A DNA stretch of 64,000 nt from a virus (Duplodnaviria; Heunggongvirae; Uroviricota; Caudoviricetes): IMG/VR virus record IMGVR_UViG_2850796239_000011, positions 1 through 64,000 of that record. One strand, given 5' to 3'. Each line of letters begins with the position of its first letter. The stretch's first letter is position 1. The notes beneath the pieces are model-generated. The model worked only from the letters and a program-made list of their open reading frames with translations, made no database searches and was not told the DNA's origin. The position numbers and the translations under genes are program-made. Positions 38,604-57,591 of this stretch are shown here, piece by piece.

Positions 38604-38785
38604 GTTTGCCCCTTATCTCGCGAAGCTCTTCTACGGAAGAACCAATACCAATGGTGACATAATCGCCGCTTCGGCCCTCAAGGTACATGCGAACATTTTT
38701 ATCAATCATTGCGGAAACAGTCTCAATATGAAAACACTTCTGAGACTCGCTATATAGCAGAACATATAAGTCAGCTGAGGAAGCC

Positions 38786-39151: not shown

Positions 39152-39346
39152 CAACAAATATGCCCTGAACGTTTATTGCGGTTTTATCACCGGGGATTGT
39201 TACAACCTTAATCCACAGGAGGCTTTATTATGACTTTTATAAAGAATATGGCATCACACAAGACCGCCAGCCTTATTGCACAATACGGTGAAAATTACAT
39301 GCATATTGCCTGCTTATTTCTGCGTAAAGCATACGGGAAATAACAA

Positions 39347-39706
39347 ATGACACATGAACCCATTAATACATATCGTCGCCGTATAGCTGTTGCGGCACTC
39401 CATCGAATAAAACGTAAAACAGGTGGTGATCTGCTTATTGTTGACCTTCTGGATGGGAACATTACGACCATAGAAATAACAGAACAGTTTATAAACCAGT
39501 TGCTGTTGCGCTTTGAAGGTATTACCCGTGGTGAATTGGGTCGAGTGGAGGGTGAAACAGAAATCCGAACTGCATACCAGAATGCTATCGGGATTAATCA
39601 ACATACTGAATACCAGGCTGAAACCGGAAAGTTAATTATAGACAACCTTTTACAAGAGGTTATTGATTACGCGAAAGAAAAATATATCAGAGGAGGAATT
39701 AACTGA
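39347..39706 (+). CDS. Hypothetical protein
   Basis: 119-aa ORF; no family recognised. Confidence 0.35.
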   Translation: MTHEPINTYRRRIAVAALHRIKRKTGGDLLIVDLLDGNITTIEITEQFINQLLLRFEGITRGELGRVEGETEIRTAYQNAIGINQHTEYQAETGKLIIDNLLQEVIDYAKEKYIRGGIN

Positions 39707-39793
39707 TGGCTAATTTATCCCCTGTATCTGTTGTGCACGAAAAAGTGCAGTGAGGTGTACTGGCAATAGCGGACACTACCATTTGTTCTTTTT

Positions 39794-40612
39794 TTAAGCA
39801 GCCATCTGATGATATTTTTCCCTGAAGGCTGCCGGGGAGATATTCCCCAGACGAGAGTGACGACGCTGACGATTGTAGAAAATCTCAATGTATTCCCGTA
39901 TTACTGAGATGGCTTCATCCCGGTTATTAAAACGATAGTGGCTCAGGCTCTCATTTTTCAGCGTTCCCCAGAAGCTTTCCATCGGAGCGTTGTCGTAACA
40001 GTTACCTTTACGCGACATTGATGTTTTCAGACCAGACTGCTCCTGTATGACCCGGTAATCGTATGCGCAGTACTGTGAACCTCGATCAGAGTGGTGGATT
40101 AGCCCGGCAGGTGGGCGCTGGCTCCTGAGCGCCATAAACAGGGCTTTACCTGTCAGCTCTTTTGTCATGCGCTCTCCCATGGCGTAGCCGACAATTTCGC
40201 ACGTATAAACATCTTTGATGCCAGCGAGGTACAACCATCCCTCCTGTGTGGCAACATACGTCAGGTCCGCCACCCAGACCTGATTTGGTGCTGTAGGAGC
40301 GAACGTCTGGTTCAGCAGATTTGGCGCAACTGGCAGATTGTGGTTCGGGTTCGTAGTCGCTCTGAACTTGCGTTTCTGCTTACAGCGTAGCCTTAGCTCC
40401 TTACGAAGACGTGCCAGTCGGTCACGACCAACGATGATGCCATTCTCTGCCAGCTCCGTCTGGAGCCGCCGGGTTCCATATGTTTCGCGAGTGCGGATAT
40501 GTGCCACCTTAATCTCCAGTTTTAGCCGCTCATCACTTTGTTTTCTGTCTGAGGGTTCATGCTGTACCCAGTTGTAATAACCGCTCCTGGATACACCAAA
40601 TACCTGACACAT
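39794..40612 (-). CDS. IS600 transposase OrfB (DDE integrase domain)
   Basis: 272 aa IS3-family OrfB. Confidence 0.9.
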   Translation of the reverse strand: MCQVFGVSRSGYYNWVQHEPSDRKQSDERLKLEIKVAHIRTRETYGTRRLQTELAENGIIVGRDRLARLRKELRLRCKQKRKFRATTNPNHNLPVAPNLLNQTFAPTAPNQVWVADLTYVATQEGWLYLAGIKDVYTCEIVGYAMGERMTKELTGKALFMALRSQRPPAGLIHHSDRGSQYCAYDYRVIQEQSGLKTSMSRKGNCYDNAPMESFWGTLKNESLSHYRFNNRDEAISVIREYIEIFYNRQRRHSRLGNISPAAFREKYHQMAA

Positions 40613-40647
40613 CGCTTCAATGGGAAATTGTTGTCGCCATTGTTCGA

Positions 40648-40950
40648 TTAACGCGTATTTTTCAGCGACTCCTGTGCAAAATACGCTGTTGCTTTTTTTA
40701 ATATATCTCGCTCAAGGCGAGCTTCATTTAACGCCTTACGCAGTTGCAGAATTTCAGATTCCAGTTCAGCCACCGTGCGGGAACCAGGAGTACCGAGCCC
40801 TTTTCTGGCGGCGGTAACCCATTGTCCTAAAGTGCCTTCAGGAAGGGATAATCGGGAAGCGCCTTCACTGATCGAAAGTTGATTTTCAAGAACCGTTCTG
40901 ACAGCTTCGGCTTTGAACTCTTTAGAGTAACGTTGGGTTTTTCTGCTCAT
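40648..40950 (-). CDS. IS600 OrfA (HTH)
   Basis: 100 aa 'MSRKTQRYSKEFKAEAVRTVLENQLSISEGASRLSLPEG'. Confidence 0.9.
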   Translation of the reverse strand: MSRKTQRYSKEFKAEAVRTVLENQLSISEGASRLSLPEGTLGQWVTAARKGLGTPGSRTVAELESEILQLRKALNEARLERDILKKATAYFAQESLKNTR

Positions 40951-41159
40951 TATTAGCTCCTTCTGATGCCATTCTATTTCAGGAAGGAGTGTCCGTTAAA
41001 CTCAGGCTACCTCACAGATCGTTATGACAATTGAAAATGGCCAGGTAACAGATGTCTGCAAAGTCCGCGATGGAGAGCTGATTGCCAGCATGGATACATT
41101 CATACGGCTGGCAGAAAGAGCGGGGTATCAGATAACAGCACCTGCTCAGGAGGAAACCA

Positions 41160-41378
41160 GTGACATTAACAGCAACACGAATTCCTGAGTGGGTCCACCA
41201 GCAGGCGTTGCTGGTCCTGCGGCGGTACAGATGCCGACGTATATTCCCGCATCGGATACAGCGCAACGGATATCTCAGTCTGAAGGTTAACCGTCGCTGG
41301 CGGCTGTTATCGAAAGACGACGGCCGGAACTGGGAAGTAATGAGTCATGAACGTTATTCGGGGGAAATAAAGAAATGA
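41160..41378 (+). CDS. Hypothetical small basic protein
   Basis: 72-aa ORF in early-left cargo region. Confidence 0.3.
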   Translation: MTLTATRIPEWVHQQALLVLRRYRCRRIFPHRIQRNGYLSLKVNRRWRLLSKDDGRNWEVMSHERYSGEIKK

Positions 41379-41522
41379 TCGACAACCGCACCGCCAGCGC
41401 CATTGACCAGGCATTACAGAAACATGATACACCCGTCGGCCCGTTATTTTTTGTAACACGCCACGGAAGAACAAAAAAAATGCCTCACCCGAAAAACGGC
41501 AATTCGTTACCTGGCATTCTTT

Positions 41523-41768
41523 ATGACCACCCGCGCTTTTGAACGTTCAGGATTCCGACAACGCCATCCTGACAAGCGTTTTATCTTCAACGGGAATGAG
41601 ATATGGAAACGTGGAGAATCAACCACAGAGTATACCCGCGCACACCAGCGAACAATCAGACGACTGCGCAGACTCATCGCCAGGAAACAGTATACAGAAA
41701 AATGGTTCAGAAAATATGACACATGGAGCGCCGGATATTACGAACTGATGGCAACAAAACCATTCTGA
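41523..41768 (+). CDS. Hypothetical small basic protein
   Basis: 81-aa ORF; overlaps another frame. Confidence 0.3.
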   Translation: MTTRAFERSGFRQRHPDKRFIFNGNEIWKRGESTTEYTRAHQRTIRRLRRLIARKQYTEKWFRKYDTWSAGYYELMATKPF

Positions 41769-41828
41769 CGTAAACGAAATTAACCATGACGCAATTAAAT
41801 AAGGCAAGCCGAATACATCAGGAGGACC

Positions 41829-42017
41829 ATGAACATTTATTTCAGAATAGTTATATCACTGGCAATTATCGCATGTATTTACGGATTAATCGTTCCGGCC
41901 CTCATATCAATGAAGGATACGGTAGCAGTGATTTCTGGCTTTGCTCTGGCGTGTCTGACCCCGCCCTGCATTTATGCCATTTATAAGGGTCTTTCTTTCC
42001 CCGGGAGGGAAAAATGA
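41829..42017 (+). CDS. Small membrane protein (two predicted TM helices)
   Basis: 62 aa, hydrophobic; ATGA-coupled to the SPFH lipoprotein gene. Confidence 0.35.
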   Translation: MNIYFRIVISLAIIACIYGLIVPALISMKDTVAVISGFALACLTPPCIYAIYKGLSFPGREK

Positions 42018-42242
42018 AAAAAACAATTGCGCTTGTTTTCGCGGTCAGTCTGGCTGTCTTCGGACTTGTAGGTTGCGATCGCGTTGAACCAGGTAATGTG
42101 GGTATCAAAGTCAACAAACTGGGCGACGACAAAGGTGTCGGTGAAGTGGTCGGTGTTGGTCGCTACTGGACTGGCTGGAATACTGAAGTGAACCGCCCCG
42201 GGAATCCTGGAGACTAAACTTCCTGAGAAAGAGGTAAACAGG

Positions 42243-42568
42243 ATGACTAAAAATACTCGTTTTTCCCCGAAGTCCGTCAGAGGGCGATTCGTATGGTTCT
42301 GGAAAGTCAGGGCGAATATGACTCACAGTGGGCGGCAATTTGTTCCATTGCCCCAAAGATTGGCTGTACACCGGAGACTCTGCGTGTCCGGGTACGCCAG
42401 CATGAGCGGGATACCGGAGGCGGTGATGGCGGGCTCACCACCGCTGAACGTCAGCGTCTGAAAGAGCTGGAACGTGAAAATCGTGAACTGCGCCGCAGTA
42501 ACGATATCCTTCGCCAGGCTTCCGCTTATTTTGCGAAGGCGGAGTTCGACCGCCTCTGGAAAAAATAA
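42243..42568 (+). pseudogene. IS629 orfA with 1-nt deletion
   Basis: Starts 'MTKNTRFSP' then shifts frame; the in-frame remainder is the 42293-42568 ORF; 'CCGAAG' where 'CCGGAAG' is expected. Confidence 0.7.
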
Positions 42569-43455
42569 TGCCACTGCTGGATAAGCTGCGTGAGCAGTAC
42601 GGGGTCGGACCGCTATGCAGCGAACTGCATATTGCCCCGTCAACGTATTACCACTGTCAGCAACAGCGACATCATCCGGATAAACGCAGTGCCCGTGCGC
42701 AGCGCGATGAGTGGCTGAAGAAAGAGATACAGCGCGTATACGATGAAAATCACAAGGTATACGGTGTGCGTAAAGTCTGGCGTCAGTTGTTACGGGAAGG
42801 TATCAGAGTGGCCAGATGCACTGTGGCACGTCTCATGGCGGTTATGGGACTTGCCGGTGTTCTCCGGGGTAAAAAGGTCCGTACGACCATCAGCCGGAAA
42901 GCCGTTGCCGCAGGCGACCGCGTAAACCGTCAGTTCGTGGCAGAACGACCTGACCAGCTGTGGGTGGCTGATTTTACTTACGTCAGCACATGGCAGGGCT
43001 TCGTCTATGTGGCGTTCATCATTGATGTGTTTGCCGGATACATCGTGGGGTGGCGGGTCTCATCGTCCATGGACACGACATTCGTGCTGGATGCACTGGA
43101 GCAGGCGTTATGGGCCCGTCGACCGTCCGGCACGGTCCATCACAGTGATAAAGGTTCTCAGTATGTATCGCTGGGCTACACACAGCGGCTTAAGGAAGCC
43201 GGATTACTGGCATCAACAGGAAGTACAGGCGACTCGTATGACAACGCGATGGCGGAGAGCATCAATGGTCTTTACAAAGCGGAGGTAATACACCGTAAGA
43301 GCTGGAAAAACCGTGCAGAAGTGGAACTGGCCACACTCACGTGGGTGGACTGGTATAACAATCGACGATTGCTGGAAAGGCTGGGCCATACTCCTCCGGC
43401 AGAAGCAGAAAAAGCTTATTATGCTTCCATCGGAAACGATGATCTGGCAGCCTGA
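42568..43455 (+). CDS. IS629 transposase OrfB
   Basis: 295 aa IS3-family DDE transposase. Confidence 0.85.
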   Translation: MPLLDKLREQYGVGPLCSELHIAPSTYYHCQQQRHHPDKRSARAQRDEWLKKEIQRVYDENHKVYGVRKVWRQLLREGIRVARCTVARLMAVMGLAGVLRGKKVRTTISRKAVAAGDRVNRQFVAERPDQLWVADFTYVSTWQGFVYVAFIIDVFAGYIVGWRVSSSMDTTFVLDALEQALWARRPSGTVHHSDKGSQYVSLGYTQRLKEAGLLASTGSTGDSYDNAMAESINGLYKAEVIHRKSWKNRAEVELATLTWVDWYNNRRLLERLGHTPPAEAEKAYYASIGNDDLAA

Positions 43456-44191
43456 GTTCACAGATAAAACACTCTCCAGGAAAACCGGGGCGGTTCAGAA
43501 GTTTACATTTTCCCGACCTTCAAGCAAATGAAGACCTACGATGAACCGTTCAGTTTCCAGATGAGTGACGGCACAACCATCGGCTATCACATCGGCGTGG
43601 CCTACAAAGTTGATCCATCCAAAGTTACCACAGTCTTTCAGACTTACCGCAAAGGCGTGGATGACATTACCGACACTGACCTGCGCCAGAAAATTGCCGA
43701 CGCACTCAATCGGCTGGCCAGCAAAATGACCACTGACAAATTTATCGACGGCGGCAAGTCTGAACTACTGGATGCCGCACTTAAAGACATTCAGGAAGAG
43801 ATGACACCCATCGGCATTCAGGTAATGAGCCTCTCTTATGTAGGTAAACCGGAATACCCTCCAACCGTTATCGACAGCATTAACGCCAAAGTCACGGCAA
43901 ACCAGAAAACCCTGCAGCGCGAACAGGAAGTCAAGCAACGTGAAGCGGAGGCCAACATGCTACGTGCGGAAGCTGCCGGACAGGCTGATGCCATTCGAAC
44001 AAAAGCCCAGGCAGAAGCCGATGCCATTCGTTTACGCGGCGAAGCTCTACGCCAGAACCCAGGCGTCATGGAGCTGGAAGCCATCAACAAGTGGAACGGT
44101 ACACTGCCGCAATACATGACCAGTGGTGCCAATACACCATTTATCCAGATTAAATAACTTATATGCCCGGCAGGCCGCCGGGCTAAGGGAA

Positions 44192-44518
44192 ATGCAGATG
44201 AACACCCAGAATACTCAACCGCAAATAATGAACTATGACCCGAATCTGACGTCATGCGGACGCATGGCAAAACAAACCGTTCGATTAACTTTCGGACTAT
44301 GGGAATACCGCGAAACATTCGAAGTTACTGTCGGCGGCAATCTGACCGGACTGGATGTTATCAGTTGCGCTATTGAAAGCCTGTACGCAACGCTGCCTTA
44401 TGAAGAAGTCGAGGATGAGCGCACAGGGGAAACAGATATCATGGCCACCATTAATATTGGCGAACTGATATGTCAGGATGAAGACCTGTCCGGAGAGCTC
44501 TGGCTTGCCGGGATGCTT
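44192..44518 (+). pseudogene. Hypothetical gene whose 3' end is interrupted by IS600 copy 2
   Basis: ORF stop is supplied by the first bases of the IS; the original reading frame resumes after the IS at 45786 and ends at 45836. Confidence 0.4.
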
Positions 44519-44581
44519 TGAGGTAGCCTGAGTTTAACGGACACTCCTTCCTGAAATAGAATGGCATCAGAAGGAGCTAAT

Positions 44582-44884
44582 AATGAGCAGAAAAACCCAA
44601 CGTTACTCTAAAGAGTTCAAAGCCGAAGCTGTCAGAACGGTTCTTGAAAATTAACTTTCGATCAGTGAAGGCGCTTCCCGATTATCCCTTCCTGAAGGCA
44701 CTTTAGGACAATGGGTTACCGCCGCCAGAAAAGGGCTCGGTACTCCTGGTTCCCGCACGGTGGCTGAACTGGAATCTGAAATTCTGCAACTGCGTAAGGC
44801 GTTAAATGAAGCTCGCCTTGAGCGAGATATATTAAAAAAAGCAACAGCGTATTTTGCACAGGAGTCGCTGAAAAATACGCGTTA
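44582..44884 (+). pseudogene. IS600 orfA with premature stop (Gln24 to stop)
   Basis: Identical to copy 1 orfA except CAA to TAA at 44651-44653. Confidence 0.7.
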
Positions 44885-44920
44885 ATCGAACAATGGCGAC
44901 AACAATTTCCCATTGAAGCG

Positions 44921-45739
44921 ATGTGTCAGGTATTTGGTGTATCCAGGAGCGGTTATTACAACTGGGTACAGCATGAACCCTCAGACAGAAAACAAAGTGA
45001 TGAGCGGCTAAAACTGGAGATTAAGGTGGCACATATCCGCACTCGCGAAACATATGGAACCCGGCGGCTCCAGACGGAGCTGGCAGAGAATGGCATCATC
45101 GTTGGTCGTGACCGACTGGCACGTCTTCGTAAGGAGCTAAGGCTACGCTGTAAGCAGAAACGCAAGTTCAGAGCGACTACGAACTCGAACCACAATCTGC
45201 CAGTTGCGCCAAATCTGCTGAACCAGACGTTCGCTCCTACAGCACCAAATCAGGTCTGGGTGGCGGACCTGACGTATGTTGCCACACAGGAGGGATGGTT
45301 GTACCTCGCTGGCATCAAAGATGTTTATACGTGCGAAATTGTCGGCTACGCCATGGGAGAGCGCATGACAAAAGAGCTGACAGGTAAAGCCCTGTTTATG
45401 GCGCTCAGGAGCCAGCGCCCACCTGCCGGGCTAATCCACCACTCTGATCGAGGTTCACAGTACTGCGCATACGATTACCGGGTCATACAGGAGCAGTTTG
45501 GTCTGAAAACATCAATGTCGCGTAAAGGTAACTGTTACGACAACGCTCCGATGGAAAGCTTCTGGGGAACGCTGAAAAATGAGAGCCTGAGCCACTATCG
45601 TTTTAATAACCGGGATGAAGCCATCTCAGTAATACGGGAATACATTGAGATTTTCTACAATCGTCAGCGTCGTCACTCTCGTCTGGGGAATATCTCCCCG
45701 GCAGCCTTCAGGGAAAAATATCATCAGATGGCTGCTTAA
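44921..45739 (+). CDS. IS600 transposase OrfB
   Basis: 272 aa, two substitutions relative to copy 1. Confidence 0.9.
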   Translation: MCQVFGVSRSGYYNWVQHEPSDRKQSDERLKLEIKVAHIRTRETYGTRRLQTELAENGIIVGRDRLARLRKELRLRCKQKRKFRATTNSNHNLPVAPNLLNQTFAPTAPNQVWVADLTYVATQEGWLYLAGIKDVYTCEIVGYAMGERMTKELTGKALFMALRSQRPPAGLIHHSDRGSQYCAYDYRVIQEQFGLKTSMSRKGNCYDNAPMESFWGTLKNESLSHYRFNNRDEAISVIREYIEIFYNRQRRHSRLGNISPAAFREKYHQMAA

Positions 45740-45867
45740 AAAAAGAACAAATGGTAGTGTCCGCTATTGCCAGTACACCTCACTTATCTCAGCAGAAATT
45801 ATCAGTATTGAACCCGCTACAAACATACGGCTCTGAAGTTCTCACTATTCAGAGAGCAGGAGAAAAA

Positions 45868-46110
45868 ATGTTCGCTTTGATTAATCAGGGACAACTGTAT
45901 ACCGACAGTGCCGGTTACCCGGTAAAAATTATTCGCTGCATAAACAACACTGTGTTGTACAGAAGAATGGATGGGCGAACACAGTCAGTAAAAATAAACG
46001 ATTTCAATGAACTGTTTGAACGGATCGATCACCAGGAATACCGACAAATTCTGGCAGAAACAGAGCAGGAAGCTCATCTGAAAAAATTACGGGCCATGAA
46101 AAGGAAGTAA
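45868..46110 (+). CDS. Hypothetical protein upstream of xis
   Basis: 80 aa from 'MFALINQGQLY'; RBS GGAGA upstream. Confidence 0.4.
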   Translation: MFALINQGQLYTDSAGYPVKIIRCINNTVLYRRMDGRTQSVKINDFNELFERIDHQEYRQILAETEQEAHLKKLRAMKRK

Positions 46111-46268
46111 AGAATGAATAAAGCGTTTGAGCTATGGGTACGCCAGCGTTACGGCAATCGCTATGACCTGACGCGAGATGTTGACGGTTTCTACTGTCGT
46201 GAAATTGTGAAACGAATGTTTGAAGTGTGGTGCCACTGCCGTGGGCTGAGTGTTGTGTGAGGTAATGC

Positions 46269-46505
46269 ATGGGCAATGTGATTCAACTGGCTCCCAATGA
46301 ATGGGTTTGTGAAAGCGTTCTTATCGCAATTACCGGGCTCAAACCAGGCACAATTCTCCGAGCCCGGAAAGAATGCTGGATGGTAGGAAGAGAGTATATT
46401 CACGTATCACCAGACGGTAATCCAAAGCCATCCAGCGAATGTATGTATAACAGAAAAGCAATAGATGCCTGGGTCTCTTCAATGAAAAACAAACAACCTG
46501 GGTGA
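46269..46505 (+). CDS. xis: Excisionase-like protein (putative)
   Basis: 78-aa ORF immediately upstream of the integrase gene. Confidence 0.5.
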   Translation: MGNVIQLAPNEWVCESVLIAITGLKPGTILRARKECWMVGREYIHVSPDGNPKPSSECMYNRKAIDAWVSSMKNKQPG

Positions 46506-46560
46506 TTTAATGCCATGAAGTATGTAAGCTCGTATCGCTCTTGGGCGTCTGGAGGTATCA

Positions 46561-47874
46561 ATGGATAAAGTCAAATATCCAACAGGCGTCGAAAACCACG
46601 GTGGCACATTACGCATCTGGTTTAATTTTAAAGGTAAACGTGTCAGGGAAAATCTTGGTGTCCCTGACACTGCCAAGAACAGGAAGATCGCCGGAGAGCT
46701 GCGGACATCTGTATGTTTTGCCATTCGTACAGGAAATTTTGATTATGCTGCGCAGTTCCCTGACTCTCCTAACCTCAAGGCTTTTGGGGTAAATAAAAAA
46801 GAAATTACGGTGAAAGAACTTGAAGAAAAATGGCTGGATCTGAAACGAATGGAAATCTCTGCAAATGCATTCAATCGCTATGAATCCATTGCAAGGATGA
46901 TGGTTCCGAAGATTGGTGGCAACCGACTGGTATCAGCAGTGACCAAAGAGGAATTGCTGTATATCAGGAAAGATTTGCTGACCGGATACCAAAATCCAAC
47001 AAAAGGTAAAGCTCCAGTAAAAGGACGAAGCGTTGTCACAGTAAATTATTACATGACAACAATCGCTGGAATGTTTCAGTTTGCTGCAGATCACGGTTAC
47101 ATAGAAGCAAATCCCTTCGAGGGAATTAAGCCTCTTAAAAGAGCCAGGGCAGAACCAGATCCGCTAACTCGTGACGAATTTATTCGCCTGATAGATGCTT
47201 GCCGGCATCAGCAGACAAAAAACCTGTGGTCATTGGCTGTGTACACAGGAATGCGTCATGGTGAACTGGTCTCCCTGGCCTGGGAAGATATCGATCTGAA
47301 AGCAGGAACAATTACTATCAGGCGCAATTATACGAAACTCGGTGAGTTCACTCTACCTAAAACTGAAGCAAGTACAAACAGGGTTGTGCATCTTATCCAG
47401 CCCGCTATCAGTGTCCTGAAAAATCAGGCTGAAATGACAAGACTGGGTAAGCAGCACAACATCAAGGTTCAACTACGTGAATATGGACGTTCAGTAAATC
47501 ATGAATGTACTTTCGTATTTAACCCCCAGGTGGTTAGAAAAAGCAAACAGGTAGGTTTTATCTACAAGGTAGATTCCATTGGCGACTCATGGGAAACAGC
47601 CATTAAACGTGCAGGCATCAGGCATCGAAAGGCATACCAGTCACGACACACTTATGCGTGCTGGTCATTATCTGCCGGAGCAAATCCAAGCTTCATTGCC
47701 AGCCAGATGGGGCATGCAAGTGCCCAGATGGTGTTCAATGTATACGGAGCATGGATGACTGACAGCAATGCAGAACAGATCGCAATGCTGAATCAGAAGC
47801 TGGCAGATTATGTCCCAATGATGTCCCATGGTCACCAAAGTGACACAAGAGGCTTATTAAAATCAGTGAGTTAG
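46561..47874 (+). CDS. int: Tyrosine integrase
   Basis: 437 aa; catalytic region with conserved Arg...His-x-x-Arg...Tyr pattern ('HTYACW...AQMVFNVYGAW'). Confidence 0.9.
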   Translation: MDKVKYPTGVENHGGTLRIWFNFKGKRVRENLGVPDTAKNRKIAGELRTSVCFAIRTGNFDYAAQFPDSPNLKAFGVNKKEITVKELEEKWLDLKRMEISANAFNRYESIARMMVPKIGGNRLVSAVTKEELLYIRKDLLTGYQNPTKGKAPVKGRSVVTVNYYMTTIAGMFQFAADHGYIEANPFEGIKPLKRARAEPDPLTRDEFIRLIDACRHQQTKNLWSLAVYTGMRHGELVSLAWEDIDLKAGTITIRRNYTKLGEFTLPKTEASTNRVVHLIQPAISVLKNQAEMTRLGKQHNIKVQLREYGRSVNHECTFVFNPQVVRKSKQVGFIYKVDSIGDSWETAIKRAGIRHRKAYQSRHTYACWSLSAGANPSFIASQMGHASAQMVFNVYGAWMTDSNAEQIAMLNQKLADYVPMMSHGHQSDTRGLLKSVS

Positions 47875-47977
47875 CTTTTAATACCCGTCATGTTAACTGT
47901 TAATGAGGGCATTGAGTCGGGGGCTGGCAGCATACTGCGCAAGCACAGTGGCAGCCACATTCTGCACGTTATGCCTC

Positions 47978-49210
47978 CTAGAGTTTCACACTGATATCCG
48001 ACACATCCAGAACCGGAATCTCATCTATCCCGAAAGTGACAGCCGTTGTCCATGACGAACCGTCACGGCTCACAGTAAGGCCCAGAATATCAATATGTTC
48101 CGGATCGGTTTTGTAAATGCCGGCATAGTAGCGCCCGGCAGAGACAACAGAGGCAACCCTTGCCCGCAGACCACCATCTGTACCATTAAATGCGTCCAGC
48201 ACGGATTGCTGTACCTGTCGGGTAATATCTGAAGGCAGGTAGTCACTTTTTTTCAGCGTCACACTGACATGCAGACTGACGGGTTTGAGTGTCTGCCAGC
48301 TGATCACGTATTCAGGATACGGCGGATCGTACTCCTTATCTGCAACAGTGAACGTTGTGTTGCCATTCATATCAATACCCGGCGGAGCCTTACGCCAGAT
48401 GGCCGCCGCGATATCTGCCGGGCTGCCGCCGTACACGCCAACATAAAGCGAACCGGGTGTTAATGGATACTGACTGACTCCGGCTTTTTGTTCTGTTTTT
48501 TTCGGATTATGGGTGACGTAAACATCCACCACGTTTTCTACCGTGGAGAGTATTTCACCCCGGATGGCTTCCAGAATATTCCGGGCATTACGGGCAACTG
48601 AATTACGTCGGCGGTTTTCAAAGTCCGCACGGGTTTCCTCATCGCTGCCCGGCACACCGGCACTGGCGTTAGTGACACCTGACCAGCCAGGTATTGCCTT
48701 ATAAATTTTATTCAGCGTCCCCACAGGACAGCCGACGGGGCCGGTGGACAAATTCAGAAATACCGCATCAACCTGCCCTGATGCGCCGATAGTGACGTCT
48801 GACTGACTGACATACTTATAACCGGCCTCATCCTGCGCCATACTGCCCGCCGGGATCAGCGTGCCAACCAGCCCGGTACAGGTCGCTGTTACTGTCGTAC
48901 CTGTGGCCCCGCGGCGCTCCAGGAAATAAATCCTGCCTATTGCATCCTGAAAGCGACCACTGGAAAAGTCAGGGTTGATCTGGTTAACGATATACAGCAA
49001 CTGGTCGTTTTTATCCGCAATAATGGCGCTTTCGCTGGATGCAAGTTGTCCCTGCGGACTGCTCAGACTGGTACTCATGGCCCCGCCCAGCGCCGCCGAA
49101 AAATCAGCAAGCCTGCCGCTCAGAATATCCGCTTCATCCGGCACATTCAGCCCGCGATCCGAAATCTGTACAGCGGGCACTGCGGTAGAAAAAGATTTAT
49201 TTTCACTCAT
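47978..49210 (-). CDS. Baseplate J-like protein (myovirus-type prophage remnant)
   Basis: 410-aa ORF following GP46-like and spike genes; last gene before the lambdoid int end. Confidence 0.65.
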   Translation of the reverse strand: MSENKSFSTAVPAVQISDRGLNVPDEADILSGRLADFSAALGGAMSTSLSSPQGQLASSESAIIADKNDQLLYIVNQINPDFSSGRFQDAIGRIYFLERRGATGTTVTATCTGLVGTLIPAGSMAQDEAGYKYVSQSDVTIGASGQVDAVFLNLSTGPVGCPVGTLNKIYKAIPGWSGVTNASAGVPGSDEETRADFENRRRNSVARNARNILEAIRGEILSTVENVVDVYVTHNPKKTEQKAGVSQYPLTPGSLYVGVYGGSPADIAAAIWRKAPPGIDMNGNTTFTVADKEYDPPYPEYVISWQTLKPVSLHVSVTLKKSDYLPSDITRQVQQSVLDAFNGTDGGLRARVASVVSAGRYYAGIYKTDPEHIDILGLTVSRDGSSWTTAVTFGIDEIPVLDVSDISVKL

Positions 49211-49563
49211 AGCAATACCGTAAAAATGTCATTATTGGTATCTGTAATACGCAGCACACCTGTTACTGTCCGGGTTTGATCAGCTGTGACCTGGCAGACA
49301 GCGGCGCTCACGGTCGGCAGTTTAAGTGCTTCCTGTTGCAGAGTGGCATTCACCAGTTGTGTGCCGGGCCAGTGTCCGAGGATGCGTGGCCAGTAAGGTA
49401 TGCCAGCCGTTGAGTCGTACCAGCACTCCCCCAGAAAAGTACTGCACGCACACGCCACATCCTGAGCTACCGCATGGGGATTATCAGTAATGGCAAGATT
49501 TCCGGTATCATCAAGCAGGATATCCCATGTCCCGGTGTCAAGAAGAAGTGATCGTGACTGCAT
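49207..49563 (-). CDS. GP46/gpW-like baseplate protein
   Basis: 118 aa, coupled between spike and J-like genes. Confidence 0.55.
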   Translation of the reverse strand: MQSRSLLLDTGTWDILLDDTGNLAITDNPHAVAQDVACACSTFLGECWYDSTAGIPYWPRILGHWPGTQLVNATLQQEALKLPTVSAAVCQVTADQTRTVTGVLRITDTNNDIFTVLL

Positions 49564-49575
49564 GTTTTCTCCTGT

Positions 49576-50253
49576 TTACCGGGGTCCCTGCGTGGTTGAG
49601 CCGCCGGACTCAACGCCGCCGTGAACGTGGTTTCCAAAATCAATACCCCCGATGTTCGAACCGCCGGAAAGCCTGGACTGCCCGGTAACGTCAAGCCCCT
49701 TACTGACGGCGGTATCGCCGTTCAGCGCAATTTGTGGTGAATTAACGGTGAAGCTTTTCGGCGCATTAATCACACCCTCAGGCGCGGATATCTCCACTTT
49801 CCAGGGAGATACAATCCGTATCTGGTTGTCATCAAATACCACAAACTGGACGGGATCACCGTTGAGCACGCCACCCAGCCAGATGGCATCAGCATAATTA
49901 TGGGTACGCTTTGATCCCGGCATCGCAGCCTGACGCGTGGCTTTTACCGCACTGATATCCCGATCGCAGATGGCAAGAAAACCGATATCCCCCACATGTG
50001 GCGGCATAATCACCGCATTACCGCCCCCCTGTAGTCGCCATACGGGAATGTTATAAATCACCTCATGTTCAACCGGGGAACCGTCTGCTGCAACGCCCAT
50101 TACCATCGGTCGGGCCTCAATAAATCCCTCTTCCACGGCTACCACCCGTCCCAGAGTGATAAACGCATGACGTCCGAGAAACTGCCGCAGCATAAAGTCC
50201 TGTGCATTGATTTCGCTGTTCACGTCTGTCGGGTTACTGAGTGGTTGTGCCAT
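49576..50253 (-). CDS. Baseplate spike / assembly protein V-like
   Basis: 225 aa; Gly-rich C-terminus ('NHVHGGVESGGSTTQGP'). Confidence 0.6.
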   Translation of the reverse strand: MAQPLSNPTDVNSEINAQDFMLRQFLGRHAFITLGRVVAVEEGFIEARPMVMGVAADGSPVEHEVIYNIPVWRLQGGGNAVIMPPHVGDIGFLAICDRDISAVKATRQAAMPGSKRTHNYADAIWLGGVLNGDPVQFVVFDDNQIRIVSPWKVEISAPEGVINAPKSFTVNSPQIALNGDTAVSKGLDVTGQSRLSGGSNIGGIDFGNHVHGGVESGGSTTQGPR

Positions 50254-51103
50254 TTTCTTCAGCCCTCATCATGGTACAGTTGGAACTCCACGGACCGCCC
50301 ACGGTTCGCGAAGTAATGGTGTGTATCACCCCTGTGATCGTATAATCGCCCGTCATATCAGGCAGTGACGATTCCAGATGCGCTGGCCTGCCAGTAAAGA
50401 GATCGGGGCAGAATATCGTGGTGGCGCTGAGTCCGGTCATGGTGTAAACCGGATAGCCAGTCAGTCCGTGATCCGGCGAAATCAGTACCGGCGGAATATT
50501 CCGGTTCTGCCCTTTCGGCCAGATGGTGACTTTCTCCACATTCCCCAGATCAATGTTAATATCGGCGGCTGAAGCGACATCCAGCATTTGTTGTACAACA
50601 TTACCGGAAAAATGCGGGTCAGACAGACTGCGGCTGACCCCCTGGTTTTCAAATCCAAGCCCGACAGTTGACGCCAGCGCACGGATAATATCTGCAACCG
50701 CAACATCGCCCTTTGCGCTGAAATCTGCCGCCGGCTGATTACGCAGATTAAAATGAATCTGTCCTGTCAGAATGAGCGGAATATCCGGCGCCTGGTTGTA
50801 GTCGGCGTATGCATCAGTAATATCACCTTCAAAAATAAGCCGCCCGTCGGCCCACAGCCGCATTTTATTTGCGGTACTCTGCTCCTGTCGCCACACACCG
50901 CGCCAGCTTAAATTCGTCATATGCGCCGGTGACATTCCCCAGATATACAGCGTGATTTGTGTACCAGCCACCCCTCCATATACGCCAATACTGGCAAAAC
51001 AGCTTGCGTCGGTAATGGTCAGCATATTGCCCTGGCCATTACCAAACGTTCGTCCGTCTGAAAGAGTGAACTCCACCGTTATTTTACGTTGTCTGTAGCT
51101 CAT
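50234..51103 (-). CDS. Tail/baseplate protein (hub-like, putative)
   Basis: 289-aa ORF in baseplate module. Confidence 0.45.
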
Positions 51104-51402
51104 ATCAGTTCCTCAGGTAACAGCCAGTAGAGCCGGTACCGGGATCCGAGCCCCCGCCAGTCAGGGTCACTATTCCCCTCCGTGTCGGTAAAAAACAGGT
51201 CCCCCTGAAACGGCAGGTATCCGTACCGGACAATCCGGTTATTATTCAGACACAGCACGCCATACAGGCACGGTTCACCATTAACAATGATATCGATATA
51301 CATCCCCGTAGTACGCTGATTCAGGCGAATGGTGCAGACCTGAGCGCCCAGTGTCACCGTAAACTGCTGGGCTTTAACGGGAGATAAAACAATTTCCAGC
51401 AT
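51100..51402 (-). CDS. Tail protein (putative)
   Basis: 100-aa coupled ORF. Confidence 0.4.
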
Positions 51403-52112
51403 CAGGTGATCCCCCTGTTCGTGGCGCTTCGTCTGTCAGCGTCTGACGGTTGTGTCACCGACGCCGTAACTGACTGCGTTTTAACCGATGCGGCCCCTTT
51501 TGCTTTATCGTTGTCCGTGGGAGACGACTTATCCGTACTTCCCACTGACACCTCTCCTGTATTCATTACGGTCTGAAATACCGCAGTAACCGTCAGTAAG
51601 GTCGGACCATTATTACTTCGCATTCGGTAGTCATATTTCACAAGGTCGCAGGATGTCCATGTCTTGTCCGGCGTCTCAATATCGTAGAGTCCTGCCGTGG
51701 TACGCATCCTTTCAAGCGTTTCCAGCACATTCGTCCGCGAGGTGGTGGAAAAATTTGTCAGGTTCGGGACGGATCCGGAAAAGGCCGTCCACCCCTCTAC
51801 AGTGAAAGTCACATGCAGTTCCGGCGATCTCTGGATTTTATTAAAGGTGGTATAAGCCCCCTGCTCCACGGGGACGGTGGAAACAGAAGCCTCCGCGCCC
51901 ACCTCAACGACAACAAAAGAATCCGGGGAGAAAGGTTTGCCACCCTTCTGATGGGCACCTGCCGGATCATTCCGTGCGTAATAAATACCGAATGACGGTG
52001 CCAGTACACTGTTAATGAGTCCCAGGACACCGCCGCCACGAACTGCACTCAGTACGTTACTTTCACTGAGCGAAAAGTTATTCAGGGAAATATTATCGAA
52101 AGAAAAACTCAT
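51402..52112 (-). CDS. Tail protein downstream of tape measure (putative)
   Basis: 236-aa ORF. Confidence 0.45.
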
Positions 52113-53599
52113 CCTGTTACCCCGCTGGAATAAACCGACACAAGCGCCGAATTCGTGATACGCCGACGTGCGTCATCGGTAATACCCTTCACATTGTCCG
52201 ACGTTGTGGTGACATTCAGTGTCCCGATATGCGTGGTTTCCGTTACGGTGGACTGCGATACAGGCGCAGGATGGCGCGACCGTATGGCCATTGCCGCACC
52301 CGGATAAGGCAGGTTCGCCAGCACCCGCGGAATATAGTTGCGGGTCTCCTCCGGAGCAGCAGCCAGTCCCTTACGCTGAACATTTCCCTCTCCCCAGTTA
52401 TATGCCGCCAGAGCCTTAGCCAGATCGCCATGAAAAAAACGTATCAGGCCACCAAGTTTTCTCGCGGCGGCATCAGCGGCTTTTTCGGGATCAAAGGCAT
52501 CGTTCCCCTCAGACCAAATTCACTGGCCGTCTTCGGCATGAACTGAAACAGTCCCATCGCACCAGCAGGTGAGACGGCAAACTGATTACCACGGGATTCG
52601 GTGATCGCAACGCTGCGCAGCAGTCCGGGCGGCAGGTTATATTTTTCCTCCAGTTGAGACAGTTTCGGTTGCAGCCAGCCTAACAGGGCTTCCCCGGTCT
52701 TCGTCGGTCGCTGGCGGTTTTGCATGGCATTACCGAGTTTTTCCTGCGTCGCACGCATACCCTGTAGCCAGGATTCACCGAAGGCTGCTTCCCTCCCGGT
52801 TGCCTGAGAAGCCTGAGTATCCAGCATGCCCTGCTGCCATACTGTGGGTGATTGTGCCCGGGTGATGTTGCCAGGCTTTTCTCCGGCATCCAGTTTTGTC
52901 TGATACGTCTCCATCTCTTTCTTATTGAAAAAGAAAGTCCCGTCTGAAGCCCAGAAAAAACCATGTGAATCCAGCCAGTCCTTATTTTCCCTGCCAACAA
53001 TGGATGTCAGTAATCCGTCAACAACCGGGTAAAGCGCCGTTATCGCAAAAAGAAGGCCTCCGGGGCCACTGAGGGCTTTTGTCAGCCCCCCGCACCCATG
53101 ACGCCACTTTCAGCCCGATCAGCGTAATAATGGCATTCTGCCAGCCCCCCAGTTCTCCGGCAGCCTTATTCGCCAGGGAGGCCACTGACTCAACGTCATT
53201 CAGAAATGTGGTGATAAACCTGTTCACTTCCTCCGGATGTTGCTGCATCCAGTCACCGAGTGTCTCCAGCCAGTGGCTGAGCTTCAGCGCGTACGGCATC
53301 AACGCGGTGCTAATCGTCATCCCGATGCCGGACCAGGTCTGATCGAGCTCAACAAGCTCTTTTCGTAGCTTACGGGCCAGCGCTATACGCCCCGGCGTAA
53401 CCTGCGAACGGGAAGTAAATTCGTCCACATCTTTCAGCGCATGACCGGAGCCAAGAAACTGCTGTCCGGCATAACTGAAGCCCAGCGCGTTGCCGTAGGC
53501 AGTTTGTTCGGACTTTGTCAGTCGCGGAAAAATAACCGCCAGCTTGCGCATGATGGCTTCAGTGCTGTCAGTATTTAAATCAACACTAGGCTGTGTCCC

Positions 53600-54115
53600 T
53601 TAATTACGTAAGCGTTGATAAAAGAGTCGGATGCAGCCCAGTTTCACCATCGCCAGGTAATTTCTCGCCGTTTTGTCGTAACGCGTGGCGATGCGGCGAT
53701 ATTCTTTCAGCCGCCCAAAGCACCGTTCAACGACATTACGATTGCGGTACGCATCACGATCAAGCTGTGCACGTCCATCCGATGCCATTTTCTCATTTGA
53801 CTTTCGGGGGATTACTGCCTTTATACCGTTATTTTTCAGCTCGTTGCGCAATGCGCGCCCTGAATACGCTTTATCAGCCAGTACCGCATGTCCACGGCGT
53901 TTCATGCTGCCGTTCTGACGCTGAACGCCAATCCCGTCCAGAAGTCGTTGCGCGAACTGGCTTTCATGAGCTTGTCCGGGGCTTAGCACGATATTTAACG
54001 GGAGGCCACTTCCGTCTGTTGCCAGATGGATTTTGGTGCCAAAACCGCCGCGAGAGCGACCCAGCCCATTATCTCCGTCGATATCGGGATGTTTTTTTGA
54101 GCACCGGCGGCACAT
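53600..54115 (-). CDS. IS5-family transposase OrfB (DDE domain), -1 frame relative to OrfA
   Basis: 171-aa ORF 'GLGRSRGGFGTKIHLATDGSGLP'; overlaps orfA across 'CAAAAAAAC' (54092-54098). Confidence 0.7.
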   Translation of the reverse strand: MCRRCSKKHPDIDGDNGLGRSRGGFGTKIHLATDGSGLPLNIVLSPGQAHESQFAQRLLDGIGVQRQNGSMKRRGHAVLADKAYSGRALRNELKNNGIKAVIPRKSNEKMASDGRAQLDRDAYRNRNVVERCFGRLKEYRRIATRYDKTARNYLAMVKLGCIRLFYQRLRN

Positions 54116-54444
54116 TTCAGCGCCCGGATATTACTGCCATCCAGCGCGGTGGCAGACCAGTCAATAAAGCCGTTTGCATCAAGTAGCGAAAGCAACCTGT
54201 TGAAAATAATATTAATCACGCCTGACTTTGACCATCGGTTAAAGCGGTTATAAACAGTTTTCCATGACCCATATCGTTCGGGTAAATCGCGCCATGGTGC
54301 ACCGGAACATAACACCCAGAACATGCCATTGATGATTTTACGGTGCTCAGCCCATGGGCGTCCGGCCCGTGGTGTGGCGGGTTCAGGAGGTAACAGGGGC
54401 TTGATGATGGTCCATGCCTCATCGGGAAGGTCGTAGCGAGCCAT
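53995..54444 (-). CDS. IS5-family transposase OrfA (N-terminal domain)
   Basis: 149 aa 'MARYDLPDEAWTIIKPLLPP...GAPWRDLPERYGSWKTVYNRFNRW'. Confidence 0.7.
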   Translation of the reverse strand: MARYDLPDEAWTIIKPLLPPEPATPRAGRPWAEHRKIINGMFWVLCSGAPWRDLPERYGSWKTVYNRFNRWSKSGVINIIFNRLLSLLDANGFIDWSATALDGSNIRALKCAAGAQKNIPISTEIMGWVALAAVLAPKSIWQQTEVASR

Positions 54445-55031
54445 AGTTCAATATGTTGTGTAAACAGACAGTTACTATAGCTCAGATGATTAAGGGACAC
54501 AGCCTAATGCCCGCCCTGGCTGCAACCTGAAACAAATCCTGTAACACAGGATCAAAGGACCTTCCGGCTCTGAAGGCCGCTTTTGCATTTGCAAGCCGGG
54601 AAAATGCCCCAGACATTTCCCCTTCATCAACATTATTTGCCCGCGCAGCCCGTAACCATCCGTCCAGATTTCTGGCCTTCATGCCAAAAGCATCAGATTC
54701 CACGGACAGACGGTTCAGATCACGGGCAAAACCTGTTACCAGGTTCTTCAGCCCCCCCAGCGTCAGACTGACACCCGCAAGAGCCAGAATCTCGCTACGG
54801 ATCCCTGAAAAAAAACGGGACGCCCGTTTCCCGGCATCTTCCATTCGACGGGCCGTTTTATCAGCATCTTTTCCGGTTTTTTCCAGTGATTCACTGGTTT
54901 TCTTCTGTCCCTGACTGAATGTGTCAGCGACACCTTCCATCACCGTCGTGAGCCGGTTAAGGGCAGCATGTACTGCCTGTTCCCCGGCAGTAAAGTCCCT
55001 GTCATCAATCCCGAGGGACAGAACAAGCTCA

Positions 55032-55273
55032 TCAAGTACCTGCGCCATTTCTGTTCTCCTGTATCACCTGTTCGTTATGGGCATCCACATGAATTATTTC
55101 CAGCAGATCCCATAAGTCCTGCACACCAAGGACAGAATCCAGTTCAGCTTTTGAAGCCTTACCGGAGGAGATAACGGTCGCAATGGTACGGGGAACATTA
55201 ACGTAATCCACCACCCCGAACGGTCTGTCGGGGTCGAGATAACGCGGGGGGATATCTAGCTGACGACGGTAGC
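55032..55273 (-). CDS. -1 frameshift extension of the tail assembly chaperone (GT-like)
   Basis: Heptamer T_TTT_TTC at 55274-55280 (minus strand) near the 3' end of the 134-aa ORF; -1 frame open from there to the stop at 55032. Confidence 0.5.
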
Positions 55274-55660
55274 GAAAAAATCCACATGCAGCTTAAAGAC
55301 CTCCGCACGCAGATTAAGACGGGTAATGATTTCTTCAATATCCTCTTCAACAAGCGGTCTCCGGATGCTGCGTTTTTTCGGATCGGGAACAAACTGCACA
55401 CAGTCCATCATTTCATCCATCAACGGACGCGCCTCATCAGGCGGAATTTTCGATAATGCTTTCAGCCCTTCAAGGGCAAGCGCAGCCATCCCCAGACTAC
55501 GAACATCATCCGGTAACTCCACGCCACCACGCCCCATTGCCATAATGGCACGCATCGCCCACCATTCCGCCTGTAAGGCAGACATTTCGGTAAGATGAAA
55601 TACCTTGCCCTTATCCCGTCCCTGACCTTCAATAGTGATAAATTTCTCTTTACGGGCCAT
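55256..55660 (-). CDS. Tail assembly chaperone (G-like)
   Basis: 134-aa ORF between tube and tape measure. Confidence 0.55.
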   Translation of the reverse strand: MARKEKFITIEGQGRDKGKVFHLTEMSALQAEWWAMRAIMAMGRGGVELPDDVRSLGMAALALEGLKALSKIPPDEARPLMDEMMDCVQFVPDPKKRSIRRPLVEEDIEEIITRLNLRAEVFKLHVDFFATVVS

Positions 55661-56106
55661 CAGTTAAAAACCTCCGGAGTAATGGTTTCCCACTCAATAA
55701 CCGCCTGCCCTGGCTGCAACGTACGAGCTGCATCAGGCAGCGCTTTCCATTGTTTGAGTACGCCATTCACGCAGGTATATTTACGGCCAATCGCCGGAAG
55801 CAGGACGACAGCGTTACAACGGAATACAGCCCGACTGGCCCGGGATGTGGTTGACCAGGTATCAAAAATATCCCGGCTGGGGGAATCCGGCATGATATGA
55901 AACGTCTGGATAATGTTGCTGTACACAAATCCCGCGGACAGTTTACCGTCAATACCGCGGGCAGTTTCCGCCAGTACCAGTGGATCGGTGCCATAAACGT
56001 TATCTGTTGCAAATCCCTGAAGTCGTACGCCGGAGGGATACAGATTATTCACTGTCAGCGTGATAATGGCATCCGCCGCAGTGATGGTGTTGTTGTTACC
56101 CGACAT
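55660..56106 (-). CDS. Tail tube protein (putative)
   Basis: 148-aa ORF directly downstream of the sheath gene. Confidence 0.6.
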   Translation of the reverse strand: MSGNNNTITAADAIITLTVNNLYPSGVRLQGFATDNVYGTDPLVLAETARGIDGKLSAGFVYSNIIQTFHIMPDSPSRDIFDTWSTTSRASRAVFRCNAVVLLPAIGRKYTCVNGVLKQWKALPDAARTLQPGQAVIEWETITPEVFN

Positions 56107-57591
56107 TTACTGGACCTCCGTGGATGCAATAACAAGTTTCTGGATACTACCGCCGTCACAGTACCAGAGCGTACAGGACGGACTGCTACGGGTTGCCCGC
56201 AAAGAGGGAAGCATATCGCCGATATACAGGTAATAGCCGGTGGCAAACAACGTTGAAGAAACATCTGCCCCCACAACATTGTTAATCTGTTTCTTCTGCG
56301 CCTCCGTCAGTGTCACCCCTTCACGGATCCCTCCCCAGCGTTTGTACTGCTGGATAACGTCACTCATTGACGCTGCAACCAGCGCCCGCCCTTCATTGTT
56401 GTAGGGGATCGTCTGGTTTGACTTGAATAACGCGATCACCGCCCCCTGCAAACTGGCATTCAGCCAGATTTGCCCGCAGAAACTGTCCAGCCATTTAAAA
56501 TCACCGGTAATAGTGCCATCCGCCCAGTAATCTTCCACCACACTGTTTTCCGCATATTTTCCGTAGAAATTGTAACCTGCGGCGATCAGCGCATCATAAT
56601 CGCTGCCACTGGTAACATCAGCGGCCAGCCCCTCATACTCGCGGAACTTGAATGATACACGCCCCTCTGGTCGGACAAAATCAAGGCACGCTGCATACCC
56701 CAGTACCGCTGCAGCCCGGTTACCATCAGTCGCGAAAACAGGTACAACAGAGCTGTAGTTATTGACAGCAATTATCTGGTAAGCGATGTGTTTAGTACTG
56801 CCTTTTACTCTGGCGTTGCCGCTGGTTGTCCATGCCACATAAAAGTAACGCTTGCCCTGCCCGTTTGCCCATGCAGAAAACGCCAGGTGTTGCTCGTCAG
56901 TGACCTCAGATACCGTGGAAAAACCCGCCCATTGCTGGGAAGCGGCCTTAATGGCTGCCATTGTGTCAGGGACATCAGATACAGGCGCGCCCCGGGATAT
57001 CACCGCACCGGTGTTACTGGTCATCTTCAGGAGTTCTGCTGCCGATCCACTGCCGAACGTTATCGTGGTACTCCCGGGTTTCGCACCGGCGACAGTAATG
57101 ACAAAAGCATTCTGTGTGGTATCGAATACCACTGTAGCCACTGCTGCGGTCAGCGCTGTCTGTAGTGCCGTTGCAGCAGCGGCGAAGCTGGCGACACCGT
57201 TAAAATTCACTTCAATGCTGACGCTTTTCCCGTTAATACTCAGCATCAGCGTGCCGGAAAGTTTTTGTAGCTGTTCAACAGTCGCGCCCTTAAACGAACC
57301 GCTACGTAACCAGGCCGCCGATGGGGCAGGACTGAAACGGGAAAACAACAATTGCCCCGGCGTCCTGGTGGCATTTTTGAAGCCCTGGAAATAAAGCTGA
57401 GCGCGTGCGTACTCATCGGATAATGCACCAAAATACGCGGCCACATCATCCGGAGAGGAAAACGGAACCACAGTGCCGACCGGAAGTAACGGATTACTGG
57501 TCAACAGCAGGCCGTTAAGATCAACGGCATTACCCGCCACAGCCAGCACACCGGGATTTATCTGTACATCTTTACTGAGTGGAATTGGCAT
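56107..57591 (-). CDS. Tail sheath protein
   Basis: 494-aa ORF with sheath-like composition, upstream of the tube gene. Confidence 0.75.

Follow-up and report, generated by a model that had tools for sequence, protein, structure and literature searches.

The window analysed here (64,000 nucleotides, corresponding to CP026875.1:4192842-4256841; locus L007 is 100% identical to it over 21 kb) contains an abrupt junction between an integrase gene and a contractile-tail module. This junction is the true end of a phiP27-like lambdoid prophage, and it lies in a baseplate gene of an older prophage, not in yecE. We propose that the phage integrase (Int) inserted the lambdoid genome at a pseudo-attachment site in the wedge gene of a prophage resident at the lambda attachment site (att-lambda), and that a homologous deletion followed. 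This is our best model, and we give it a probability of about 0.6.

The integrase and baseplate J reading frames converge, with 103 bp between them in both the ORF list and the raw sequence, and an earlier note on this DNA had placed their ends correctly (47874 and 47978). That note treated 47875-47977 as a plain spacer; most of it is instead the 5' stub of a baseplate wedge gene (PF11041 or DUF2612, now named Phage_Wedge1 in Pfam) that is cut after codon 24. Read from the integrase outwards, the junction is CCCGTCATG-TTAACTG-TTAATGAGGGC, or phage arm, seven core bases, and wedge gene. In L001 and L006, which carry intact wedge genes of 201 amino acids, the target reads GCGTTAAAG-CTG-TTAATGAGGGC (also given as GCGCTGCGTTAAAG-CTG-TTAATGAGGGC). 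The sequence switches from phage to target after core base 7, inside the CTG at 47897-47899, which is the only stretch that is certainly common to the phage core and the target. The stub begins with GTG, runs for 24 codons (47967 down to 47896; peptide VQNVAATVLAQYAASPRLNALINS), and takes its stop codon (TAA, 47895-47893) from the phage core. The raw sequence has no insertion sequence (IS) or other repeat at the junction. Overlapping BLAST alignments seemed to give an 8-bp microhomology, GTTAACTG, but this needs a 2-bp gap: the intact target is GTTAAAGCTG, of which only CTG is certain.

Table 1. Features of the window, with positions counted from its first nucleotide.
Feature	Position	Strand	Evidence
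ybhB, chromosomal flank of lambda attachment site	1..477	+	annotated ybhB in 5424/5426 E. coli genomes matched
lambda-type att core GCTTTTTTATACTAA, outer att of resident prophage	568..582	-	exact minus-strand match
lambda/434-like phage arm next to core	583..873		87-91% identity to lambdoid phages (query 1-345 of window 540-1060)
ipaH-family type III effector E3 ligase, ipaHa-like, 587 aa	1060..2823	+	Pfam NEL and LRR_TTSS; ipaHa in relatives
zone of seamless homologous left joint, resident ipaH module/lambdoid	1825..4445		collinearity with L005 and L004
DUF4376 tail-fibre-assembly-type gene, shared ipaH/fibre module	3002..3625	-	PF14301
lambdoid side tail fibre (phage_tail_N)	3576..5033	-	PF08400
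lambdoid prophage body: Lom, J, tail, head, terminase, lysis, Q, replication, immunity, xis, int	4446..47892		collinear (97-100%) with intact yecE prophage of FDAARGOS_944
IS600 copy 1, lambdoid early region	39750..41014	-	99.8% identity to annotated IS600 in L002 and L004
IS3-family insertion, 1,308 bp, in Band_7/SPFH gene	42190..43497	+	absent from L004; transposase with rve domains
IS600 copy 2, later insertion	44519..45783	+	absent from L013 and L014
excisionase gene	46269..46505	+	78-aa ORF, PF06806; "excisionase family protein" in relatives
phiP27-type tyrosine integrase, intact	46561..47874	+	437-aa ORF; PF12167 and PF00589
rest of int-proximal phage arm, 18 bp	47875..47892	+	100% identical in 8/8 yecE-resident copies with same Int
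hybrid att core TTAACTG	47893..47899	+	first 7 bp of 11-bp phiP27/yecE core TTAACTGCGTG; junction strings compared
DUF2612/PF11041 baseplate wedge gene stub	47893..47967	-	comparison of its translation with the complete genes of L001 and L006
baseplate J, resident contractile-tail prophage	47978..49210	-	410-aa ORF; PF04865 (Baseplate_J)
rest of resident structural module	49207..64000	-	Pfam matches; collinear with L001 and L006; runs past window
915-bp insertion with DDE_Tnp_1 transposase, splitting SLT/tape-measure gene	53589..54503		extra relative to L001 and L006; transposase Pfam match

To define the att core, we compared both junctions (attL and attR) of the intact lambdoid prophage in yecE of FDAARGOS_944 with the empty yecE site (attB) of K-12; a check of this kind, against genomes that lack the insertion, had been suggested in the earlier note, and it identifies the core, as the comparison with L001 and L006 identifies the wedge gene as the target. 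In FDAARGOS_944 the gene order is yecD, yecE', DinI, ipaHd, DUF4376, tail fibre, and so on to xis, int, and 'yecE. The int-side junction reads CCCGTCATG-TTAACTGCGTG-GAGGGC, the distal junction reads CACT-TTAACTGCGTG-ATACGGGATTTTTAAAAATC, and attB reads GCCCGCCAC-T-TTAACTG-C-GTGGAGGGC, so that the three sites have the 11-bp TTAACTGCGTG in common. In yecE, imperfect 9-bp inverted repeats (GCCCGCCAC and GTGGAGGGC) surround TTTAACTGC. Judging by sequence, this appears to be the core layout of a tyrosine recombinase, with the TTAACTG that is retained in the window at its centre.

The integration module is of the type found in the Stx2e phage phiP27 (NC_003356.1 / AJ298298), which integrates in yecE. 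The integrase has an excisionase gene beside it, in the same xis-int arrangement, and is identical to the phiP27 integrase at 422 of 437 residues (96.6%). The 13 bp of phage arm adjoining the core (47880-47892) are identical as well, with three differences in the first 5 bp of the arm, and in the phiP27 record (NC_003356.1) the annotated attL and attR coincide exactly with this 11-bp core. Positions 47893-47899 correspond to the int-proximal end, which is "attL" in that record. However, the flank here is the wedge gene instead of yecE, and just 7 of the 11 core bases remain at the single junction. The att core was expected within 47875-47977, and it does lie there, in this shortened form. We also looked for a simple attL/attR pair by searching the window for the 11-bp core (allowing one mismatch), for the second phage arm, and for the 7-mer. 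Apart from TTAACTG at the int end, neither the core nor the distal arm was found in the window, and no second copy lies at any plausible end, which bears out the earlier statement that there is no matching repeat near 2824-3001. The lambdoid prophage's own distal att is lost.

Misassembly had been named as the finding that would overturn the junction. The same junction string is present in CP026875.1, in a Logan assembly (SRR3793777), and in GCA_012668945.1 and GCA_000193915.2; one of these is a complete genome, two are drafts, and the Logan assembly comes from a different sequencing run. These four assemblies are independent and all belong to one ipaH-positive lineage. The junction is abrupt, and it is absent from all 5,426 RefSeq complete genomes of E. 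coli (megablast with window 46500-49300 as the query), which is what an artefact joining two unrelated prophages might look like; the junction string is absent from the GTDB species representatives as well. But because an identical junction is read through in all four assemblies, misassembly is excluded, and we consider this explanation refuted.

Each half of the junction region has its own relatives. In the megablast comparison, the sequence to the left, as far as 47899, aligns with prophages that have their integrase next to yecE, with 100% identity in the EIEC strains VL40 and FDAARGOS_944. The sequence to the right, from 47892/47897, aligns with EIEC prophages over the baseplate J gene and the beginning of DUF2612 (99.4-99.8% nucleotide identity). 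The canonical yecE junction is found in 8 of 8 other retrieved loci that encode an identical Int protein, and in all 20 int-side matches among the 30 listed of 330 matching E. coli records.

The resident prophage sits in att-lambda. Its distal end, consisting of the ipaH gene, a lambda-type phage arm, and the att core at 568-582, lies beside ybhB at the far left of the window, and the corresponding locus of VL40 (L005) has the order bioA-ybhB-ipaHa. Beside this core the sequence matches attP of lambda-like phages, among them phage 434, for which one record has the annotation "O core of attP" at the matched stretch. Since the resident's distal end is on the far side of the lambdoid prophage, the lambdoid prophage is nested inside the resident. 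One option in the earlier note was that the lambdoid phage had integrated into or beside an older prophage. The insertion into a contractile-tail prophage holds up, but the outermost att belongs to the resident and not to the lambdoid phage.

To the right of the junction, baseplate J is followed by genes for sheath initiator, spike, hub, plug, Dit-like protein, SLT/tape measure, tube, sheath, and neck, and further on by capsid, cement, DUF2213, Mu-F-like, and the start of the portal gene. The sheath, tube, baseplate J, wedge, hub, spike, and cement proteins are of the types found in the contractile-tail phages E217, Pam3, and BcepNY3 (PF11863, PF22764, PF04865, PF11041 in the stub, PF22759, PF18352, PF22758, and PF13262). 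We found no sequenced phage that is nearly identical to the resident prophage. The second prophage had been described as having no downstream fibre or lysis genes in the window. Complete wedge, fibre, and fibre-assembly genes, which directly follow baseplate J in L001 and L006, are indeed missing to the right of the junction in the window, where the lambdoid prophage has replaced them; the lysis genes, however, are present beyond the right edge of the window, where we found portal, terminase, IS600, small terminase, KilA-N, Rz, lysozyme, and holin.

The other end of the lambdoid prophage had been placed at 2824-3001. We rejected this stretch as a phage end: it is the spacer between ipaH and the fibre-assembly gene, and it is conserved in every ipaH module that we compared. 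Instead, the left joint lies within 1825-4445. Positions 1-4445 are collinear with the att-lambda locus of VL40 at 99.3% identity, and from 1825 onwards the window is collinear with the lambdoid prophage in yecE (L004). The mismatch profile changes from that of the VL40 locus to that of the lambdoid relative at about 4250-4445. The left joint is therefore seamless homology within a shared ipaH/DUF4376/fibre module and not an att site, and it is most likely inside the side tail fibre gene.

The same module is found in related prophages. Contractile-tail prophages that end in ipaH are present near yfaT in CFSAN029787, in att-lambda (beside ybhB) in VL40, and near pphA in FDAARGOS_943. The gene order in the relatives is ipaH, DUF4376, (fibre), fibre assembly, tail protein, DUF2612, and baseplate J, and in the window the two ends of this series (the ipaH module at one end; the DUF2612 stub and baseplate J at the other) are parted by the lambdoid prophage. 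Relative to L001, in which only the last 39 codons of the DUF4376 gene survive, 2.5 kb (L001 5484-8000) is replaced by 44.8 kb (3119-47891). The intact yecE prophage of FDAARGOS_944 also has an ipaH-DUF4376-fibre module, oriented the same way, so direct repeats for a deletion were available.

Under our preferred model, attP of the phage recombined with a pseudo-attachment site in the DUF2612 wedge gene instead of with yecE. Use of this site by Int would yield the junction CATGTTAACTGTTAATG. The insertion would leave two ipaH/DUF4376/tail-fibre modules in direct orientation a few kb apart, and RecA-type homologous recombination between them would delete the intervening 8-9 kb. The deleted DNA would include the 3' part of the wedge gene, the tail protein gene, and the resident's fibre and fibre-assembly genes, as well as the second hybrid att and the lambdoid prophage's own DinI-ipaH end (DinI and ipaHd). 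The end product would be a nested composite that is locked in place, and an insertion and a deletion of this kind would reproduce the window exactly. The reciprocal hybrid junction that the insertion predicts is absent from the window, the 5,426 E. coli genomes, the GTDB representatives, and the JGI metagenomes. This absence counts against the model, which attributes it to the later deletion. What the sequences show directly are the anatomy of the junction, its core, and its target gene, and that the junction is real and confined to one lineage; the action of Int, the sequence of events, and the deletion are inferences.

The phage-side breakpoint is in the inferred overlap region of the core, at the centre of the inverted-repeat layout, which suggests that Int acted on its own core. 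On the target side, the likeness to attB is weak, which counts against the model: four of seven overlap positions match, and an arm-like motif, GAGGGCA, is 1 bp out of register. Among 13,846 background CTG sites in comparable sequence, 0.9% score at least as well as the target. Mismatched overlaps normally inhibit tyrosine recombinases. In-register pairing of the GAGGGCA in the target with the yecE arm can be discarded, as it predicts CTGTAATG and we observed CTGTTAATG.

The insertion sequences give some information about the order of events. The early region of the lambdoid prophage contains three of them. The IS3-family insertion is at the same site in the window, in another junction-bearing copy (L014), and in a prophage that resides in yecE (L013, from GCA_900450175.1). 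Because it is common to yecE-resident and junction-bearing copies, one prophage lineage seems to have changed its site once. The order would then be the IS3-family insertion, a single change of site, and the second IS600. This history could reflect excision followed by re-insertion, or a transfer from one close relative to another, and an intrachromosomal swap would account for it equally well; the presence of an IS in the prophage at the time it moved is equally compatible with such a rearrangement.

The main alternative, which we take to be unlikely, is an intrachromosomal rearrangement in which the int end of a yecE-resident prophage was linked to the wedge gene in the att-lambda resident. 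The joint might have formed by exchange between attL and the pseudo-site, or by abortive cleavage by Int and microhomology joining at CTG; in a second step, homologous exchange via the ipaH modules would complete a segment swap, which is formally two inversions. That close relatives (VL40 and FDAARGOS_944) hold the prophage in yecE with an int region that is 100% identical favours a swap, as does the IS3-family insertion in L013, which implies that an established, IS-bearing prophage moved. Furthermore, just 3 bp of homology is certain at the junction, the target resembles attB at chance level only, and the ipaH modules, which are present at five or more loci, are obvious substrates for inversion. 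Yet a swap needs two rare long-range events that both have their endpoints inside these two prophages. Recombination of attL with attB-like sites is inefficient for lambda Int, and by analogy it may be inefficient here. The swap would put the displaced fibre genes beside the 3' part of yecE, and an exchange between attL and the pseudo-site would give a reciprocal product in which the fibre genes and the 3' part of the DUF2612 gene are joined to 'yecE through GCGTTAAAGCTGCGTGGAGGGC. This reciprocal junction was not found in the E. coli, GTDB, or JGI collections, which exclude the source lineage.

Two further explanations involve the site in the wedge gene itself. An illegitimate deletion or rearrangement that did not involve Int, and that ended at the att core by coincidence, might leave a 3-bp microhomology, which is typical of such joints; but a random break would fall within an 11-bp element of a 45-kb prophage only about 2 times in 10,000 (2e-4), and here the breakpoint is in the core at the inferred overlap, with no IS or repeat at the joint to account for it. 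We consider this explanation very improbable. One observation in its favour is an unrelated deletion from another sample (P0010), whose endpoint in the wedge gene is no more than two codons away. This also hints that the 5' end of the wedge gene is a recurrent pseudo-att site or hotspot, where phiP27-type phages disable the resident prophage and fuse with it through the shared ipaH/DUF4376/fibre module, and the Logan contig L010 stops exactly at the breakpoint. We doubt the hotspot, which is improbable on this evidence; if true, it would mean that the effector end and chromosomal site of another prophage are captured systematically in Shigella and EIEC. P0010, a wedge protein with a foreign N-terminus, was also considered as the reciprocal product of the insertion, but it proved to be unrelated: a deletion had fused the sheath initiator to the wedge protein.

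Both prophages are now defective. The resident has lost its wedge and fibre genes and its SLT/tape-measure gene is split, and the lambdoid prophage, having a single att junction, can no longer be excised by Int and Xis. This fixes the ipaH effector and the lambdoid cargo in the chromosome. The prophage boundaries can also be corrected: the composite extends from the lambda-type core at 568-582 rightwards past the window, and the nested lambdoid prophage spans about 4.4 kb to 47,899. This explains, at nucleotide resolution, how two prophages can abut without a recognisable att pair. If Int was the catalyst, then the junction records a non-canonical insertion, in nature, by an integrase of the phiP27 type, a type that includes those of Stx-converting yecE phages, and it is an example of how shared ipaH/tail-fibre modules may let Shigella and EIEC prophages fuse and lock in.

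The event is of a known kind and is a well-resolved example of it; it refines the annotation and does not open a new question. Lysogeny at secondary sites is classical for phage lambda, and such secondary (pseudo) attachment sites were reportedly described by Shimada, Weisberg and Gottesman in the 1970s. As in those lysogens, the junction here is in the crossover region, the target has little similarity to attB, the core is hybrid, and the target gene is inactivated. In contrast to the lambda case, this is a natural isolate and not an attB-deleted laboratory host, the reciprocal junction is lost, and Int is the putative catalyst.

Integration into resident prophages has been described for yecE-type phages (Nakamura et al. 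2021, PLoS Pathog, PMC8112680). There, the target was a chromosome-derived copy of the yecE attB, in which a 21-bp att lies within some 100 bp of sequence with 87% identity to yecE, and the inner prophage was flanked by attL as well as attR. Here too a yecE-type lambdoid prophage interrupts a defective resident with type III effector genes and forms a composite prophage cluster. But the target here, GCGTTAAAGCTGTTAATGAGGGC, is in the coding sequence of a structural gene and has no extended homology to yecE, and there is one hybrid junction, the left joint being homologous instead of an att.

The comparison with the phiP27 genome covered the early region: identity is about 93% over about 47% of window 27000-47899, and 93% for window 28975-47899. 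Unlike phiP27, the prophage lies outside yecE and carries ipaH-module sequence instead of stx. Its structural genes are lambda-like (gpJ and an HK97-type ClpP-capsid fusion) and are not matched to phiP27 in this early-region comparison. The proteins they encode share 95-100% identity with their counterparts in FDAARGOS_943, relative to which the portal and ClpP-capsid genes are frameshifted. Finally, effector genes located after the fibre genes and beside att are typical of lambdoid prophages (PMC3530523). The ipaH genes follow this pattern, both at the resident's end (568-2823) and in the yecE prophage of L004, with the difference that the module here also appears to have been the homology that fused two prophages.

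In the window, GCTTTTTTATACTAA is the exact lambda att core; it is accompanied by a lambda/434-like phage arm and immediately adjoins ybhB. Therefore, the resident ipaH-carrying, contractile-tail prophage sits at the classical att-lambda site. In the lambdoid (phiP27-like) prophage that is nested inside it, a Band_7/SPFH gene is interrupted by an IS3-family insertion, and the same insertion is present in a yecE-resident lambdoid copy (L013) and in relocated copies (the junction-bearing copy L014 and the window). This insertion is a marker that gives the order of events.

Coordinates of the features discussed
Feature	Sequence	Positions
Lambda att core and lambda/434-like arm	window	568-873
Changes of reading frame in the ClpP-major-capsid fusion and portal genes	window	18472-18514, 20041-20074
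IS3-family insertion in the Band_7/SPFH gene	window	42190-43497
Hybrid att core at the wedge-gene breakpoint	window	47893-47899
Region corresponding to the Logan contig L010	window	47897-51999
Resident prophage, as compared by megablast	window	47900-64000
Insertion in the SLT/tape-measure gene	window	53589-54503
Second interruption of yecE	L013	5726-7340

At least five chromosomal loci (att-lambda, yecE, btsS/yehU, pphA, and yfaT) hold near-identical ipaH / DUF4376 / tail-fibre modules (loci compared: L001, L004, L005, L006, L012, and L023-L032), and these modules are linked to lambdoid and to contractile-tail prophages alike. They are plentiful substrates for recombination between prophages.

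Compared to the intact genes of FDAARGOS_943, the ClpP-major-capsid fusion and the portal gene of the lambdoid prophage have changes of reading frame. Either the genes are genuinely frameshifted, or the assembly contains homopolymer errors.

A megablast search of 50,697 records of sequenced phages gave no match to the resident prophage, yet its baseplate J cluster is widespread in Salmonella enterica. The prophage's SLT/tape-measure gene is split by a 915-bp insertion with a DDE_Tnp_1 transposase, and two short-read contigs from sister isolates terminate at this element.

The Logan contig SRR8186612_187 (L010) encodes the exact baseplate J protein, and it ends at exactly the last base that is common to the intact and interrupted wedge alleles. 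This suggests a branch in the assembly graph, possibly because both alleles are present within the sample. In another Logan contig (L035, from SRR26490739), residues 1-28 of the sheath initiator are joined to the wedge protein at ...ITDN/AALSPDSF (P0010). The deletion behind this fusion takes out baseplate J and is unrelated to the junction studied here; its endpoint lies at most two codons from the wedge-gene breakpoint.

A second break in yecE, at nt 479, is seen in some genomes (L013 and L017). The element inserted in L013 starts with a large serine recombinase of 507 amino acids; in L017, there is no called gene immediately after the break. Truncated YecE proteins of 165 amino acids also occur among sequences, presumably of other genera, that share 81-87% identity with E. 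coli YecE. Together with the breaks at nt 479, these truncated proteins may indicate that yecE has a second conserved site of integration.
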